15,311 nucleotides of DNA from a virus (taxonomy: Duplodnaviria > Heunggongvirae > Uroviricota > Caudoviricetes): the IMG/VR virus record IMGVR_UViG_2703718829_000001; one strand, written 5' to 3'. The position numbers were made by a program, and so were the translations under genes. Under the pieces are notes generated by a model, which did not search any database, had not been told where the DNA came from, and was given only the letters and a program-made list of their open reading frames with translations. Of this stretch, positions 1 to 15,311 are shown piece after piece (position 1 is the stretch's first letter; every line of letters starts with the position of its first letter).

Positions 1-1642
1 TATTACGTGGGTAGGATCAAGTTCTTATGAACGCCAGAAGAGAACAGCCGCAGAGATAGCCGCAAAATATGATCTTGAGCTAGTTACAAGCTATCAGGAT
101 TTTGGTGTATCTGCATTCAAAGGGGCTAACAGTAGAACAGGTGCACTATCTCGCTTTCTGGATGAGATTGGTCGATCCGTTCCGGTTGGTAGCTGGCTGG
201 TTGTGGAAAACTTAGACCGTATCTCTCGCCAATCCATCATTGAAGCACAAGAGCTATTTCTCTCGATTATCCGTAGGGGAATAACTATCGTAACTGGCAT
301 GGATGGTAAGGTCTATAGCAAGGAATCGGTTAATGCCAATCCTATTGATTTGCTGTTGAGTGTCATGTTGTTTGCGAGAGCTAACGAGGAAAGTCAGACT
401 AAGCGCAATCGTACTAACTCAAGCGCATTGATTAAGATTAAAGCTCATCAAGAAAATCCACAAAATCCGGCTGTTGCAATCGAGGAAATTGGAAAGAATA
501 TGTGGTGGACTGATACCACATCTGGTTATGTGCTTCCTCATCCGGTCTTCTTCCCTATTGTTCAGGAAGTTGTGGAATTACGCAGGAATGGACGGTCAAC
601 CGCCGAGATACTGGATCACCTTAACGCGACATACACACCACCACCAGCCGCAAGTCACAAGAGGCATTCAAACTGGTCACGGGCAATGATTGAAAGGTTG
701 TTCCATACCCGCGCTTTGATTGGTATCAAGGAAATCTCTGTAGATGGCGTTAAGTATGAGTTAAAGGATTATTATCCTCGTGTGCTAGATGACGCTGAGT
801 TTTATCACCTTAAGAAAAGCATTGGTGTTAGAGCATGTAACTATGGAGACAAGGAAGAAGTTAAACCTATTCCCTTGCTTAGTGGTGTTGGTCTATTGAA
901 ATGTGAACATTGCGGTTCCGCTATGGTTAAGGTGAAAGGAACTAACAAACGTCCTAACCAATATCGTTATTCATGCGATGCAATGCGCTCTAGTCGTATT
1001 GCATGTGTGCATACAAACTGGAGTTTTCGAGGTGATCAATTAGAGAAAGCTGTATTGCAATTGCTGGCTGATAAAATCTGGATTGCTGAGGATAAGGCTA
1101 ATCCGGTTCCGGCTTTGAAAGTACAGATTGATGAAATATCACGCAAGATTGATAACCTGATTACCCTTTCTGCTATGACAGGAGCAACGAAGGAGCTAGC
1201 CGATCAGATTACTACCCTCAATAGCGAGCGTGAAACACTCTACAATCAAATTAAGATGGCAGAAGAGGAAATGTATTCTGTTGACTCTCAAGGCTGGGAG
1301 AAGCTCGCAGAATTTGATTTAGAAGATGTTTACAACGAGGATCGCATTAAGGTCCGGTTTAAGATTAAGCAAGCTCTAAAACGGATCGGGTGTAGCAGGA
1401 TTGACAAGTACAAAAACTTGTTTGTACTGGAATACATCGATGGCAAGACCCAGAGAGTTGTAATAGAAAATTCAAGAGGACCGAGGAAAGGCCGGATCTT
1501 CGTTGATTTGAAAACTATCAATGATAGACAGATTCTGGAAAGTAACGGGCTTGTTTTGCATCCATGTTTAGACATGCTGACAGATAAGAACTGGAAACCA
1601 GAAGAGGAAATACCAGGTCCATTACAGGAATTTGGAATTTAA
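1..1642 (+). CDS. Large serine recombinase (integrase-type), 5'-truncated at the window edge
   Basis: Frame 2 is open from position 2 to the TAA at 1640-1642; the GTG at 203 in the ORF track is internal. Translation from nt 2 gives ...GSSSYERQ... then ...GSWLVVENLDRISRQ... (nt ~190-225), resolvase-type catalytic-domain motifs, followed by a Cys-rich zinc-ribbon (CEHCGS...YRYSCD...C, nt ~900-1010) and a C-terminal coiled coil. Size and domain order fit a large serine recombinase rather than a small invertase. Only a few N-terminal codons are missing. Confidence 0.85.
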   Translation, partial: ITWVGSSSYERQKRTAAEIAAKYDLELVTSYQDFGVSAFKGANSRTGALSRFLDEIGRSVPVGSWLVVENLDRISRQSIIEAQELFLSIIRRGITIVTGMDGKVYSKESVNANPIDLLLSVMLFARANEESQTKRNRTNSSALIKIKAHQENPQNPAVAIEEIGKNMWWTDTTSGYVLPHPVFFPIVQEVVELRRNGRSTAEILDHLNATYTPPPAASHKRHSNWSRAMIERLFHTRALIGIKEISVDGVKYELKDYYPRVLDDAEFYHLKKSIGVRACNYGDKEEVKPIPLLSGVGLLKCEHCGSAMVKVKGTNKRPNQYRYSCDAMRSSRIACVHTNWSFRGDQLEKAVLQLLADKIWIAEDKANPVPALKVQIDEISRKIDNLITLSAMTGATKELADQITTLNSERETLYNQIKMAEEEMYSVDSQGWEKLAEFDLEDVYNEDRIKVRFKIKQALKRIGCSRIDKYKNLFVLEYIDGKTQRVVIENSRGPRKGRIFVDLKTINDRQILESNGLVLHPCLDMLTDKNWKPEEEIPGPLQEFGI

Positions 1643-1680
1643 GCGGCCTAAATCGACGTATAACGAGCTAAACACTTTAA

Positions 1681-1703
1681 GGGGTACATCTGTACCCCTT
1701 TTT
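1681..1703 (+). terminator. Intrinsic terminator after the recombinase gene
   Basis: GGGGTACA-tc-TGTACCCC perfect inverted repeat (1681-1698) followed by TTTTT (1699-1703), 39 nt after the stop. It sits between the convergent gene ends at 1642 and 1716. Confidence 0.6.
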
Positions 1704-1715
1704 AATTTAATTGTA

Positions 1716-2714
1716 TTAAAGAGCCTCTAAAGGGCTTAAATCGAGTTCTAAGTCTTCTGGTGTTAAATCAGCTAACGGTGCATTCATCCACTGCGATAAA
1801 TCTCGTTCTATGTCTTCATCACTAATGTAGTTGTTCAGATTGATTGCGTTGGTATCATCAAAATACATTGGCTTAGATGGGTTGGTGTGGATGTATTCAT
1901 TGATGAATGATTTAACATCTTTCAGCTTGCTAATCGGTAGCGTTTCTGTGAATCCGCTATTCATTACCTTACGTGGAATTTTCTTGCCCTGAATATTCTT
2001 TTTAATCCCCATTTCTAAATCACCAGCTTTCCATCCAATGTTAAACAAATGTGAGCATTCAAAGGTGATTTTCTCGCTGGTGTGCTTCTGGTGTTCTCTT
2101 ACCCGTTGCATCGGATCTTTGCGAGTGGTAATTCCATATTTGAAAAACTTCTCGCCAACACGAATTAGATAAAAGTGCATAGGGCGCTGTGCAAACTTGT
2201 TTCTGATAACCTGTTTTCTACCATTCTGAATTGATTTAAGTACACCCCTAACCAAAGGGCATGTTAACCCGCCTTGTCTGCGGTTATTGTGTAAATCACC
2301 TTTCTTGTGAATCTTTCCGTGGCACTTACAACGAAGAATTAGTTTAGTGTCAACACCCTGATAAGGTTCAGCCAGACCTAACACATCCCACCCTATCGGC
2401 TTGTAGAACTTGCGAGCGTTTTCTAAGTGTTCTTCTTCGGTAAATCTAAACTTCTTCTTAGGCGGTGATACTCTATCTTTGCCAGTAAACTGACCAGTTA
2501 GAACATGACTAATACATGGCGTTTTAACCTTTCCGTTAACTTCTATGCAAACTTTGGTGTTCTGGAATGGTTTCTTTACAGGAAGCACAAAACCACTGTA
2601 TAACCACCCATGCACTTGACAAACTTTAATGATTCTGGTTTCATATTCGACCGGAGGGGTCGCACGTTTGCTTTTTGTGGTAAATTCGATATCCTTTGCT
2701 AAAGTAGTATTCAT
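1716..2714 (-). CDS. GIY-YIG / T5orf172-like domain protein with a Cys/His-rich N-terminal half (putative nuclease or DNA-binding protein)
   Basis: 332-aa ORF with ATG at 2714 and a GAGGA Shine-Dalgarno about 8 nt upstream. The C-terminal half contains HFYLIRVGEKFFKYGITTRKDPMQRVREH, which fits the GIY-(10-11)-YIG-...-R-..-H/E pattern of GIY-YIG and T5orf172 domains. The N-terminal half has Cys/His clusters (CQVHGW, CKCHGKIH...C) suggesting a zinc finger. Family assignment is by pattern only. Confidence 0.5.
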   Translation of the reverse strand: MNTTLAKDIEFTTKSKRATPPVEYETRIIKVCQVHGWLYSGFVLPVKKPFQNTKVCIEVNGKVKTPCISHVLTGQFTGKDRVSPPKKKFRFTEEEHLENARKFYKPIGWDVLGLAEPYQGVDTKLILRCKCHGKIHKKGDLHNNRRQGGLTCPLVRGVLKSIQNGRKQVIRNKFAQRPMHFYLIRVGEKFFKYGITTRKDPMQRVREHQKHTSEKITFECSHLFNIGWKAGDLEMGIKKNIQGKKIPRKVMNSGFTETLPISKLKDVKSFINEYIHTNPSKPMYFDDTNAINLNNYISDEDIERDLSQWMNAPLADLTPEDLELDLSPLEAL

Positions 2715-2749
2715 AGTAGTGTCCTCGAAAATAATAAGTTCACTACTAT
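2714..2749 (-). promoter_or_regulatory. 9-bp perfect inverted repeat ATAGTAGTG / CACTACTAT spanning the start region of the T5orf172-like gene, with a third direct copy (AGTAGTA) inside the first codons
   Basis: Arms at 2714-2722 and 2741-2749 with an 18-nt spacer containing the GAGGA Shine-Dalgarno. A related copy lies at 2703-2709. No T-run follows, so it is not a terminator; it could be an operator or an RNA structure over the ribosome-binding site. Confidence 0.3.
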
Positions 2750-2758
2750 TTATAAGAA

Positions 2759-3130
2759 TTAATTATTGTAGTTTTGGAAGCCAGTAAGATCGCAAAATGA
2801 ATCAGTGTCATGTGCTGGGGAACGATGCTCTGCTTCGTCGGAGAAAATGTTGGATACCGGAGATTCCACTTTAACTTCCGGTGCTTCTTCAACATCTGAC
2901 TTAACTTCTTCGACCACTGGTTCAACTGCTGGAGATTCTTCTTTTGTTTCTTCAATGACGATCTCAGGTTCTTTCATTGCTTCAACCAGAGACGGATCAA
3001 CTTCGTCGAATACCACTTTATCATCTGCGGTATATTTGTCTATAATGAAAAAATGGTCAGAAATATAGCTAACGTCGCCAGCATATTCTAACAAAAAAGC
3101 GCCCACCAGAGGCGCTTTTGTTTTATCCAT
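2759..3130 (-). CDS. Highly acidic hypothetical protein (Glu/Asp/Pro/Val-rich C-terminal half); start codon uncertain
   Basis: ORF ends with TAA at 2759-2761. Candidate starts are TTG at 3160 (overlaps the upstream gene by 38 nt, no Shine-Dalgarno), ATG at 3130 (Shine-Dalgarno-like GGTGGA but no spacer) and ATG at 2977 (72 aa). The terminator hairpin at 3099-3115 lies inside the two longer versions, so the real protein may be the short form. Translation is strongly acidic (EEPEIVIEETKEESPAVEPVVEEVKSDVEEAPEVKVE...). Confidence 0.4.
   Translation of the reverse strand: MDKTKAPLVGAFLLEYAGDVSYISDHFFIIDKYTADDKVVFDEVDPSLVEAMKEPEIVIEETKEESPAVEPVVEEVKSDVEEAPEVKVESPVSNIFSDEAEHRSPAHDTDSFCDLTGFQNYNN
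3093..3116 (-). terminator. Intrinsic terminator downstream of the peptidase M15 gene
   Basis: On the minus strand: AGCGCC-ucuggug-GGCGCU stem-loop (3099-3116) followed by UUUUU (3093-3097), starting 7 nt after the stop at 3123. An A-run on the other side makes it formally bidirectional. Confidence 0.55.
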
Positions 3131-3476
3131 TCCACCGTGATTTTTTTGATCTGGAATCAATATGCGTAAAGGTTTTATATTTTCCTAAGCCGTATTGAGT
3201 AGGATATTTCCCATCAAGATAAGCATGAACAATATCAGGTGAGACACCCTTGATAACAATGTCAGCCGCACGGCCTCGAACGTGATAGCTGTTGGTTGCA
3301 CCGCCTACATTCTTGTTATGAGTCGGGCAACGGTTGCCACTGTTAATAATTACTGGTTTCCCGAAGTGTTCGCGTACATCCTCAAGAATCACCAGTAATT
3401 CAGCGTCGATTGTATCATAATCACATTTTCCGCATTTACATTTAAATTCCTTGCGAGAAAAATGCTTACTTAACAT
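3123..3476 (-). CDS. Peptidase M15 family protein (zinc D-Ala-D-Ala carboxypeptidase-like); putative endolysin or cell-wall hydrolase
   Basis: 117-aa ORF with ATG at 3476 preceded by TAAGGGGGTAAT. The translation FSRKEFKCKCGKC...GKPVIINSGNRCPTHNKNVGGATNSYHVRGRAADIV matches the small peptidase M15 (YcbK/DUF882-like) pattern SG.R....N...GG...S.H..G.A.D. Confidence 0.75.
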   Translation of the reverse strand: MLSKHFSRKEFKCKCGKCDYDTIDAELLVILEDVREHFGKPVIINSGNRCPTHNKNVGGATNSYHVRGRAADIVIKGVSPDIVHAYLDGKYPTQYGLGKYKTFTHIDSRSKKSRWNG

Positions 3477-3485
3477 ATTACCCCC

Positions 3486-3833
3486 TTAGATCATTTCGAA
3501 GATATAACCAATAAAGCGCATACCCTTGATATAATAAGGAGCAGTGCCTACACACACCGCGCGTGCATCACCCAGACAGTTAAAGCTATAAGGATTAACT
3601 ACATCGACTTCTTGTCCTACACGAAAACGATATTTAGGACGTTTAGCCAATGTAGCGACACAAAACACGGTCCCTTTTTCATGATCGCGGATACATTCTT
3701 TATATTGTTTATGTTTAACTCTCTTCGCCTCAAAATCATGTGTCATAGATTCTGGGCTAATGCCATTAATAAAAATACCGGAAAGCTGATCGACCGGATA
3801 AGTAGGAAATTCAGTGAAAATATTTTTAGCCAT
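3486..3833 (-). CDS. Hypothetical protein (115 aa)
   Basis: ATG at 3833 with a GGGGG Shine-Dalgarno 7 nt upstream; TAA at 3486-3488 sits next to the Shine-Dalgarno of the following gene. No family recognised. Confidence 0.7.
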   Translation of the reverse strand: MAKNIFTEFPTYPVDQLSGIFINGISPESMTHDFEAKRVKHKQYKECIRDHEKGTVFCVATLAKRPKYRFRVGQEVDVVNPYSFNCLGDARAVCVGTAPYYIKGMRFIGYIFEMI

Positions 3834-3836
3834 GTT

Positions 3837-3864
3837 ATACCCCCATAAGTTTCTATGAGGGTAT
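3837..3864 (-). promoter_or_regulatory. RNA stem-loop burying the Shine-Dalgarno of the 115-aa gene (copy 2 of a recurring motif)
   Basis: Minus-strand RNA reads AUACCCUCAUA-gaaacu-UAUGGGGGUAU, an 11-bp stem with one G-U wobble. The 3' arm contains the GGGGG Shine-Dalgarno, with the AUG at 3833 three nt past the stem. It starts 8 nt after the upstream stop at 3872. The same core recurs at 10590-10627. Confidence 0.45.
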
Positions 3865-3871
3865 TTATGGA

Positions 3872-4555
3872 TTAAACGTATTTCATGCGCGATTTAATGT
3901 GCTTATTGATGTTTTCAAGCATCATTGCTTCGTTGCTTTCCCACGATCCTAGCGTCGAATAACGAGTAGAAATTTTATCCGACTTAACGGCAACAATTCG
4001 CTTACTCTGTTTCTGGATGCGTTTCTCTAAGCGACGTTTTGCCACCGCCGATCCATTCCTAGCGCGTTTGGTTCGGGATTTCTTAGGCTTGTACTTCTTC
4101 ATGATAAAAGTCCCTTCCTTGTTCTCTACCTTGATGAAGTTGCCGTTTTCGATGTTACGCATCATCTTACCGCCTTTGATGGCCTTAATGTTCCCGTGGG
4201 CGTCTAAGACCTTACCGTTGGCGATTGGAACTAGCTTATTGATTTTGCCCCCATCGAAATAGTGTTTCAGATAGTCGTCTTGACTGCCGATCTTCTTGTC
4301 CTTATCCCTTGCGCCCTTGATGAAGATTTGGTGTCTCGTCCCTGATCGGTTCTTGTAGTTGGTATTACCTACAGCTTGTTGAGTCCATCGAGTAGGTCTA
4401 TCAACATTCTTGTTAATCTTCTTCTGTAGTGCACGAGCAGCAAAGATCGCCCCTTCCCCTAGTGCCCTTTCGAATGTATCGGTTGCTTTATCAGTCCATT
4501 GGCGTAACGCTTTCTTAGTCCTTAGAGCGTTTCGTTTATTGGTACTGGTTGCCAT
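3872..4555 (-). CDS. Lys/Arg-rich basic hypothetical protein (227 aa)
   Basis: ATG at 4555 with a GGGGG Shine-Dalgarno 5 nt upstream. The translation is very basic throughout, especially the C-terminal third (KKYKPKKSRTKRARNGSAVAKRRLEKRIQKQSKR). No family recognised. Confidence 0.7.
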   Translation of the reverse strand: MATSTNKRNALRTKKALRQWTDKATDTFERALGEGAIFAARALQKKINKNVDRPTRWTQQAVGNTNYKNRSGTRHQIFIKGARDKDKKIGSQDDYLKHYFDGGKINKLVPIANGKVLDAHGNIKAIKGGKMMRNIENGNFIKVENKEGTFIMKKYKPKKSRTKRARNGSAVAKRRLEKRIQKQSKRIVAVKSDKISTRYSTLGSWESNEAMMLENINKHIKSRMKYV

Positions 4556-5065: not shown

Positions 5066-5110
5066 AGATAAAAATAATCCCGCCTAACTCAAAAGAATTA
5101 AGCGGGATTA
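5066..5110 (-). terminator. Possible terminator or attenuator after the central tail fibre gene
   Basis: 8-bp inverted repeat AATCCCGC (5076-5083) / GCGGGATT (5102-5109) with an 18-nt loop. On the minus strand it is followed by AUUUUUAUCU, 19 nt after the stop at 5128. The long loop lowers confidence. Confidence 0.35.
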
Positions 5111-14308: not shown

Positions 14309-14362
14309 TATTCTTTTCCTTCTATTTTAAACAATAGGGCACATACCCGTAATTCTATTTAT

Positions 14363-14665
14363 TTAGCGGTTGCTCAAACGTCTATAACGAAGATGAGCGA
14401 CCCCCCTATTTGTGCTAACGGTAATTACCGCCCCTTGCGGTGCAATACAAGAATGAATCTGTCCCCAATCATGACCCTTATGACTTCCAGACACACAAAA
14501 GCCATGCAAAAGCAATTCTGAGTCACCACCGCCACCACCAGAAGAACTAGCACCAAATGAAACCGTACCGAAAGCGTCGGCTGTCCAACCGTTAGGAATA
14601 TCAAACCATCCCTGATTAGCTTTACCGGCTTTATTGTCTAAAACGCCATACACCCAATATCCCAT
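14363..14665 (-). CDS. Glycine-rich small protein, paralog 3 of 3 (100 aa), function unknown
   Basis: ATG at 14665 with an AGGAG Shine-Dalgarno 9 nt upstream; the start overlaps the stop of paralog 2. Shares MGYWV, WFDIPNGW, a poly-Gly run and a basic/aromatic C-terminus with its two neighbours. Confidence 0.7.
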   Translation of the reverse strand: MGYWVYGVLDNKAGKANQGWFDIPNGWTADAFGTVSFGASSSGGGGGDSELLLHGFCVSGSHKGHDWGQIHSCIAPQGAVITVSTNRGVAHLRYRRLSNR

Positions 14666-14970
14666 TAATGCATTCTCCTAAATTGGAAGTGGTTTAAACT
14701 TCCTTTACCAATGCTAAAACTGACAGTAGCACCAACACCAACTAAAGAACTAGCTCCCCAACTTCCGGCATTACCAGCGTGATGACCTGATTCGAGAGTA
14801 CCGTTTACATATAATTCGGCGTCCAAGTCACCTCCACCGCCAACGGCTTCGGCATGAACAGACACAATACCGCATGAATCCGTCACCCAACCATTAGGGA
14901 TACCAAACCAGCCGCCATTAGCATAAATGCTAATAGCATTAGCCATTCTTCCAGCAACCCAACCAGCCAT
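14665..14970 (-). CDS. Glycine-rich small protein, paralog 2 of 3 (101 aa), function unknown
   Basis: ATG at 14970 with a GGAG Shine-Dalgarno 8 nt upstream; 2 nt after the stop of paralog 1. Motifs MAGWV, WFGIPNGW, GGGG. Confidence 0.7.
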   Translation of the reverse strand: MAGWVAGRMANAISIYANGGWFGIPNGWVTDSCGIVSVHAEAVGGGGDLDAELYVNGTLESGHHAGNAGSWGASSLVGVGATVSFSIGKGSLNHFQFRRMH

Positions 14971-14972
14971 AA

Positions 14973-15269
14973 TTAAAACTCCATAAATTTAAAGTATTCA
15001 ATACCACCGACACCCCCATGACCAAAGGTGACAGTACATCCAGCAGGAACAAACGCATTAACCGTAAATCCCCAATCCCCACCACCACGACGACGCGCGG
15101 CGACCATACCGTCAACGGAAATATGCATATCGCCCCAACCATCACGAGCGGTATGCCGCAAAACGGCAACACCAGCACGACCGGGTACATATCCATTAGG
15201 AATATCAAAAACATGCCATTTTACAGCATCTATTTTAGTGCCTTGTTCATTACTTACCCAATAGCCCAT
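14973..15269 (-). CDS. Glycine-rich small protein, paralog 1 of 3 (98 aa), function unknown
   Basis: ATG at 15269 with an AAGGA Shine-Dalgarno 6 nt upstream. Motifs MGYWV, FDIPNGY, RRRGGGDWG. The most divergent of the three. Confidence 0.65.
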   Translation of the reverse strand: MGYWVSNEQGTKIDAVKWHVFDIPNGYVPGRAGVAVLRHTARDGWGDMHISVDGMVAARRRGGGDWGFTVNAFVPAGCTVTFGHGGVGGIEYFKFMEF

Positions 15270-15311
15270 TTAAGATCCTTAGCGGGGATTTCTCCCATAA
15301 GCGCTAACTTA

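Follow-up and report, generated by a model that had tools for sequence, protein, structure and literature searches.

The perfect palindrome that lies downstream of a large serine recombinase gene in an E. coli prophage is very probably a Rho-independent (intrinsic) terminator of the plus-strand unit ending with that gene -- unannotated, but as such an ordinary terminator of a known kind. The initial annotation, made from the letters alone, had taken a recombinase-gene terminator as its default reading, and this is well supported by the fold, the T-run, the position and the conservation in 34 copies; its further suggestion, a possible attachment-site core, fails on the prophage junctions. Positions 1-4000 of the window (the whole stretch of 15,311 nucleotides that was analysed) have matches of 93-99% identity in 58 of 5,426 complete E. 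coli genomes, every one of them chromosomal, so the window is part of a prophage, whose size is about 33 kb (its ends lie 33.3 kb apart). Genes on the minus strand of the window include a tail module of siphovirus type (tape measure, tail tip), an endolysin that is an M15 peptidase, and small accessory genes. The features around the palindrome are as follows.

1-19, plus strand: the terminal 19 nt of an IS3 element, TATTACGTGGGTAGGATCA, which match exactly the right end annotated for K-12 IS3A (...CATATTACGTGGGTAGGATCA).
20-1642, plus strand: the coding part of a large serine recombinase gene that runs from about codon 20 up to its stop codon at 1640-1642 (Pfam Resolvase, Recombinase and Zn_ribbon_recom; PHROG phrog_95 integrase family).
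1643-1678, plus strand: 3' untranslated spacer from the stop codon to the hairpin, conserved in alignments of relatives.
1679-1700, plus strand: the reported palindrome, a putative terminator hairpin (fold -14.5 kcal/mol; stem invariant and loop variable in 34 copies).
1701-1715, plus strand: the remaining U-tract and an A/T-rich tail, TTTAATTTAATTGTA, the last recombinase-linked conserved segment before the variable cargo.
1716-2714, minus strand: a convergent 332-aa ORF, T5-type homing endonuclease-like (phrog_681 endonuclease; 27% identity to T5 endonuclease/putative homing endonuclease).

The palindrome, AAGGGGTACATCTGTACCCCTT, reads AAGGGGTACA-TC-TGTACCCCTT and is a perfect 10+2+10 inverted repeat, with coordinates and symmetry exactly as first annotated; the 73-nt gap between convergent genes that holds it (1643-1715) likewise agrees with the recombinase stop at 1640-1642 and the end of the 332-aa ORF, whose stop is at 1716. 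It had been placed immediately 3' of the recombinase gene, but in fact starts 36 nt past the stop codon. The T5 run that was said to follow it does exist (1699-1703), though two of the five T are the last of the 3' arm, leaving just TTT beyond the palindrome. No other perfect short-range inverted repeat in the window is as long. Perfect arms of 10 or more around a spacer no longer than 8 arose in 47 of 300 dinucleotide shuffles of the window (16%), and the 10+2+10 arrangement itself in 5 of the 300, so that the geometry alone is just modestly unusual. That the palindrome is real is confirmed by its position in the gap, its G+C-rich stem and T-run, its folding energy and its conservation in 34 of the 34 relatives that retain the segment.

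In a scan for terminators, the palindrome ranked second among the terminator-like sites of the window. Its RNA folds into a 9-bp stem (AAGGGGUAC/GUACCCCUU) with five G-C pairs and the tetraloop AUCU, at -14.5 kcal/mol (z = -4.6; none of 200 shuffles was as stable), which is the stable G+C-rich stem-loop of a Rho-independent terminator. The U-tract is also there -- T5 followed by AATTTAATT, with T4-T6 kept in 34 of 34 copies -- and the hairpin stands at the 3' end of the unit, where it is still last when a small ORF has been added. Pairing is kept while the loop is free to vary. As judged from sequence, the hairpin has every property by which a terminator of this type would be recognized. An Rfam search with the whole window gave no family match. 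In common with canonical intrinsic terminators of E. coli and phages, it has a G+C-rich stem in the 7-9-bp class, a loop of 4 nt, a U-run immediately behind the stem and a location tens of nucleotides past a stop codon, between convergent genes; its energy is in the same range as those of the annotated terminators in one coliphage record (-16.1 and -17.3 kcal/mol). Nothing substantive sets it apart from them, though its U-run is short (five) and interrupted by A, and its loop is unusually polymorphic among near-identical copies.

The copies compared come from 6 E. coli genomes and 28 IMG/VR contigs and include 34 with the segment, the window among them; contig L047, in which the recombinase match ends at residue 414, is without the hairpin segment. 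The stem, GGGGTA(C)/(G)TACCCC, and the T-run that follows are invariant in all 34. The inner bases occur in eight alleles: CAGATG in 10 copies, CATTCG in 7, CATCCG in 6, CATCTG (that of the window itself) in 5 and CATTTG in 3, with ACATTCG, ATTCG and TTAG in one copy each, and the spacing from GGGGTA to TACCCC is 4, 5, 6 or 7 nt. The perfect 10+2+10 palindrome is therefore just one allele, most copies being non-palindromic at the centre. Five of the variants were folded; four have energies of -14.5 to -14.7 kcal/mol, and the bulged allele of ETEC1717 is weaker (-10.9 kcal/mol, z = -2.3). Being invariant, the stem offers no compensatory covariation, and the structural case for a hairpin is made by the variation in loop and spacing and by the energetics. 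An invariant stem with variable centre and spacing fits an RNA hairpin, and not a crossover core or the site of a protein dimer. No relative of the recombinase turned up in a scan that took one genome per species.

The relatives remain homologous across hairpin, T-run and AATTTAA(TTG), and their homology ends 9-18 nt past the T-run. The slot beyond the terminator (1716-2714 in the window; the variable region in L007 and L008) is occupied by alternative cargo genes: in L3Cip3, a GIY-YIG nuclease stands in place of the 332-aa ORF, and in CFSAN061761 a same-strand DEAD-box helicase. Where the cargo is convergent, the stop codons of the different genes fall at the same position, 15 nt past the last stem base in the window and L007 and 14 nt past it in L001. 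A recent import of the L3Cip3 cargo (GIY-YIG nuclease plus helicase) from a T4-like phage was considered and dropped, as no near match was found in the phage collection. On the other side of the hairpin, a 258-nt insertion with a small ORF is found at the start of the 1643-1678 spacer in L006 and L028-L033 (the FDA946-type lineage); lying between the recombinase stop and the hairpin, it leaves the hairpin still closing the unit. Since the hairpin is kept with the recombinase gene whatever the downstream cargo, it belongs to the 3' end of the recombinase unit. The insertion, at 2706-2966 of L006 (also in L028-L033, L049 and L009), encodes an 84-aa protein, MKMIKILGLILSMNSC..., whose N-terminus resembles a lipoprotein signal peptide by eye; its place is like that of a moron sharing the terminator. 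Outside the window, a second hairpin with T-run (GCCCCTA...TAGGGGCGTTTTTG) and TATAAT in its loop is present at L001 7884-7928, directly upstream of the recombinase ATG, where it may insulate or regulate the recombinase gene.

The recombinase gene itself is interrupted in the window. A 31-mer containing the IS3 end has 100% matches to IS3 transposase elements in 4,240 E. coli genomes, all relatives read ...ATGAAGCAAGCGGATGGT followed directly by AGTTCT... where the window has the IS3 end, and BLAST matches to them begin at window position 20. The start of the gene, some 19 codons with the YIRFSS catalytic motif among them, is on the far side of the IS3 and not in the window; the intact gene, of 559 aa, is present in L001. 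Lysogens with an intact gene include E. coli PE15 (NZ_CP041628) and L3Cip3 (NZ_CP062211). The IS3 insertion has thus split the window's gene after about codon 19 and cut off the catalytic motif. The gene is probably inactive in this copy, and the prophage copy is probably unable to excise by its own recombinase. With the gene split in this way, the terminator may now serve IS read-out transcripts only, or none.

In an intact copy, the hairpin is proposed to act in the usual manner. As RNA polymerase passes 1679-1700, the nascent RNA would form the 9-bp hairpin with its 4-nt loop, and the U5 run, followed by AAUUUAAUU, would weaken the RNA-DNA hybrid and release the transcript at about 1703-1710. 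That transcription does stop here we infer from the sequence features described above; the U-run, of only five before A residues, may make termination partial. The stop would keep recombinase transcription from entering the convergent accessory, lysis and tail genes in the antisense direction, and the hairpin is part of the recombinase module, with no role in integration.

The hairpin might also serve the other strand, as a bidirectional terminator that ends the convergent minus-strand genes (the 332-aa ORF and those upstream of it) or stabilises their 3' end. This is the alternative with the most in its favour, though still an unlikely one. Being symmetric, the hairpin folds equally well on the minus strand (-15.9 kcal/mol in context), and it lies 15 nt past the minus-strand stop codon (14 nt in L001), where the alternative cargo genes end as well. 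A bidirectional terminator would be expected to have a U-tract on both strands, however, and on the minus strand the stem is followed by UUAAAGUGUUUAGC (or UUAACUGUUUUAGC; UUAAAGUG...), with no U-run; the terminator scan lists the site on the plus strand only, and in CFSAN061761, where the next gene is on the plus strand and there is no convergent gene, the hairpin is still kept.

The loop of the hairpin, at 1686-1693 of the window and the same position in L001-L050, is a hot spot of polymorphism, with at least 8 alleles between near-identical flanks. The two commonest loop alleles that give a perfect palindrome, ATCT and AGAT, are exact reverse complements of each other, which suggests that one could have come from the other by a flip or inversion of the loop through template switching between the arms. 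It is rather doubtful that the hairpin is more than a passive terminator, for instance a structure prone to extrusion or folding as DNA, a mutational or recombinational hot spot, or, together with the conserved tail, a fixed joint beside which nuclease cassettes are swapped.

Conserved arms around a variable centre would, by themselves, equally fit a palindrome bound by a protein, and the variable cargo, which includes two kinds of homing-endonuclease-like gene, starts just 9-18 nt downstream. A DNA site for a dimeric protein (a regulator, a recombination directionality factor or a homing endonuclease), or a fixed joint for the exchange of nuclease cassettes, is nevertheless very improbable. 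The half-sites shift against each other by 1-3 bp (spacings of 4, 5, 6 or 7 nt), which an RNA loop can tolerate but which would turn the half-sites of a dimer, with their fixed spacing, out of register; it is this variable spacing alone that argues against the binding of a protein. As to a joint, the cargo breakpoints lie downstream of the T-run, outside the palindrome, and neither the viral collection nor E. coli had the palindrome outside this context. A chance palindrome with no function, for which the 16% of shuffled windows with arms of at least 10 and a spacer of at most 8 might speak, has less to recommend it still, given the 73-nt intergenic gap, the G+C-rich stem, the T-run and a stem that is invariant in 34 copies while adjacent bases and loop vary.

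There remains the attachment site. If the palindrome were, or contained, the attP crossover core, its arms would be the half-sites and TC the 2-bp crossover; the sole support for this is a superficial resemblance, that of a dyad around a dinucleotide beside a recombinase gene, and its probability is put close to nil. The initial annotation had named prophage junctions mapping elsewhere, for example upstream of the recombinase gene, as what would overturn it, and that is where they map. In ETEC1717 and PE15, the recombinase-proximal end of the prophage adjoins a hicB fragment without its N-terminus, beside ydcR, with two small phage ORFs between the junction and the recombinase start; the far end, 33.3 kb off, adjoins hicA and a hicB fragment without its C-terminus. 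When both junctions are aligned to the uninterrupted hicB of K-12, the switch between host and phage falls inside a common 9-bp core, AAACCTAAA, which is unrelated to the palindrome. The core lies at L001 6884-6892 (in the sense of the recombinase), 1,052 bp upstream of the recombinase ATG and outside the window. The same hicB junction is seen in 31 complete genomes. A relative from STEC1575, ~84% identical, sits in ycdX instead; it joins the host at the same phage position (TTCCCTAATAT...) and carries the same hairpin stem, which is thus common to elements that use two different attB sites. The junctions thus lie ~1 kb upstream of the recombinase gene, not in 1643-1715; the lambda-like layout that had been assumed, with the site between the convergent tail/accessory genes and the recombinase, does not hold for this element, which has its attP on the other side of the gene.

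The palindrome itself also lacks the marks of such a site. An attP is split by integration, but the hairpin is intact inside every integrated copy, still beside the gene. Its centre is not a fixed dinucleotide but TC, GA, TT or non-palindromic (TTC/TCC) among elements that use one attB, and TC, TT and non-palindromic centres are all found among those seated in hicB. The symmetry ends after 10 bp in each arm; within 27 bp of the centre on either side, 4 of the 16 positions beyond the arms match, which is about what chance would give, where a dyad of 40-50 bp would be expected. The host-genome comparison that had been proposed gave no sequence resembling the palindrome: a 45-nt query against the 5,426 E. 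coli genomes (E <= 10) had no match outside the element, in a BLAST search that is blind to a lone 10-bp half-site, and no partner site was found in the 5,371 genomes without the element. Characterised serine-integrase sites require ~22 bp of specific sequence flanking the 2-bp crossover to left and right, and identity of the central dinucleotide with that of attB is obligatory (PMC3556126). The palindrome shares with the attP of large serine integrases (A118, phiC31, Bxb1) a dyad around a central dinucleotide and a place near the integrase gene, but those attP sites are imperfect dyads of 40-50 bp, with ~20 bp specific on each side and a dinucleotide that matches attB (PMC3556126). The palindrome, by comparison, is 22 bp long, perfectly symmetric, variable at its centre and away from the prophage ends.

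Another comparison is with the sib/tI hairpin of phage lambda, which, like the terminator hairpin here, lies 3' of an integrase gene and shapes the 3' end of the integrase transcript. The lambda hairpin, downstream of int, is the site of retroregulation; attP lies between int and sib, so that integration separates them. In the present element, attP lies beyond the opposite end of the gene, and gene and hairpin remain together in the prophage, so an integration-dependent switch of the lambda sib type is impossible here.

The attP of the recombinase is a separate site of ~50 bp some 1,052 bp upstream of the start codon, an imperfect dyad whose symmetry is suggestive only. Joining the two phage arms (attL + attR) rebuilds a site of ~54 bp, GTTATTGGGGTTTACAACATTTAGGTT joined to TCCCTAATATAATGCCCCCACAATAAC, in which outer (GTTATTG) and inner (TTAGG) blocks match and the best dyad centre, with 14 of 27 positions, falls on a TT inside the core; a dyad of 14/27 was reached at some centre in 442 of 2,000 shuffles and is non-significant by itself. 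TT is thus a prediction of the crossover dinucleotide. The annotation of the element shows no second recombinase. Exact-match searches for the intact rebuilt attP found none in viral contigs or metagenome contigs, so direct evidence for an excised circular form is absent. The 8-mer GGGGTACA recurs close to the end of the phage, within the first ORF's ribosome-binding region (GAGGGGGTACAACAATG); this is regarded as a coincidence. A literature search for a serine-recombinase prophage that integrates in hicB turned up nothing specific. On the attL side (L003 ~24010-24020; K-12 hicB is L004), the insertion leaves HicB residues 1-104 followed by CCKPQ, so that the C-terminal part of the antitoxin is removed and hicA remains intact. 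Four E. coli genomes (H168-H171) match hicB and just ~38 nt of a phage arm; these may be deletion scars, or a different element at the same attB.

In itself the palindrome is of little importance, a textbook intrinsic terminator, and the useful outcome is the negative one. For anyone wishing to use the recombinase, the palindrome is not its site; the working sites would be the ~50-bp attP ~1 kb upstream and the attB in hicB (in ycdX for the diverged relative). The presence of a short, perfect palindrome next to a serine integrase gene predicts attP poorly, whereas comparing prophage junctions with the empty site is a quick way to settle where attP lies.

Three other features of the window deserve mention. 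At 2776-3033, within a 133-aa ORF, a 256-nt stretch shares 98-99% identity with an internal segment of inh, the gene for the inhibitor of prohead protease, of the RB49-like Krischvirus T4-type phages, which points to a recent exchange between prophage and virulent phage. At 14362-15296 there are three tandem paralogues of ~100 aa with a shared D/GIPNGW motif, whose DNA is 92% identical to that of three ORFs in Krischvirus G2248; in G2248 these lie between a 3-kb gene and the holin gene, and in ETEC1717 the paralogues follow a tail-fibre gene. They may form a shared host-range or tail-fibre accessory cassette. The strongest terminator-like hairpin of the window, with a 16-bp stem and T5, is on the minus strand at 5075-5110, past the 1,258-aa tail-tip gene, and probably marks the end of the tail operon.
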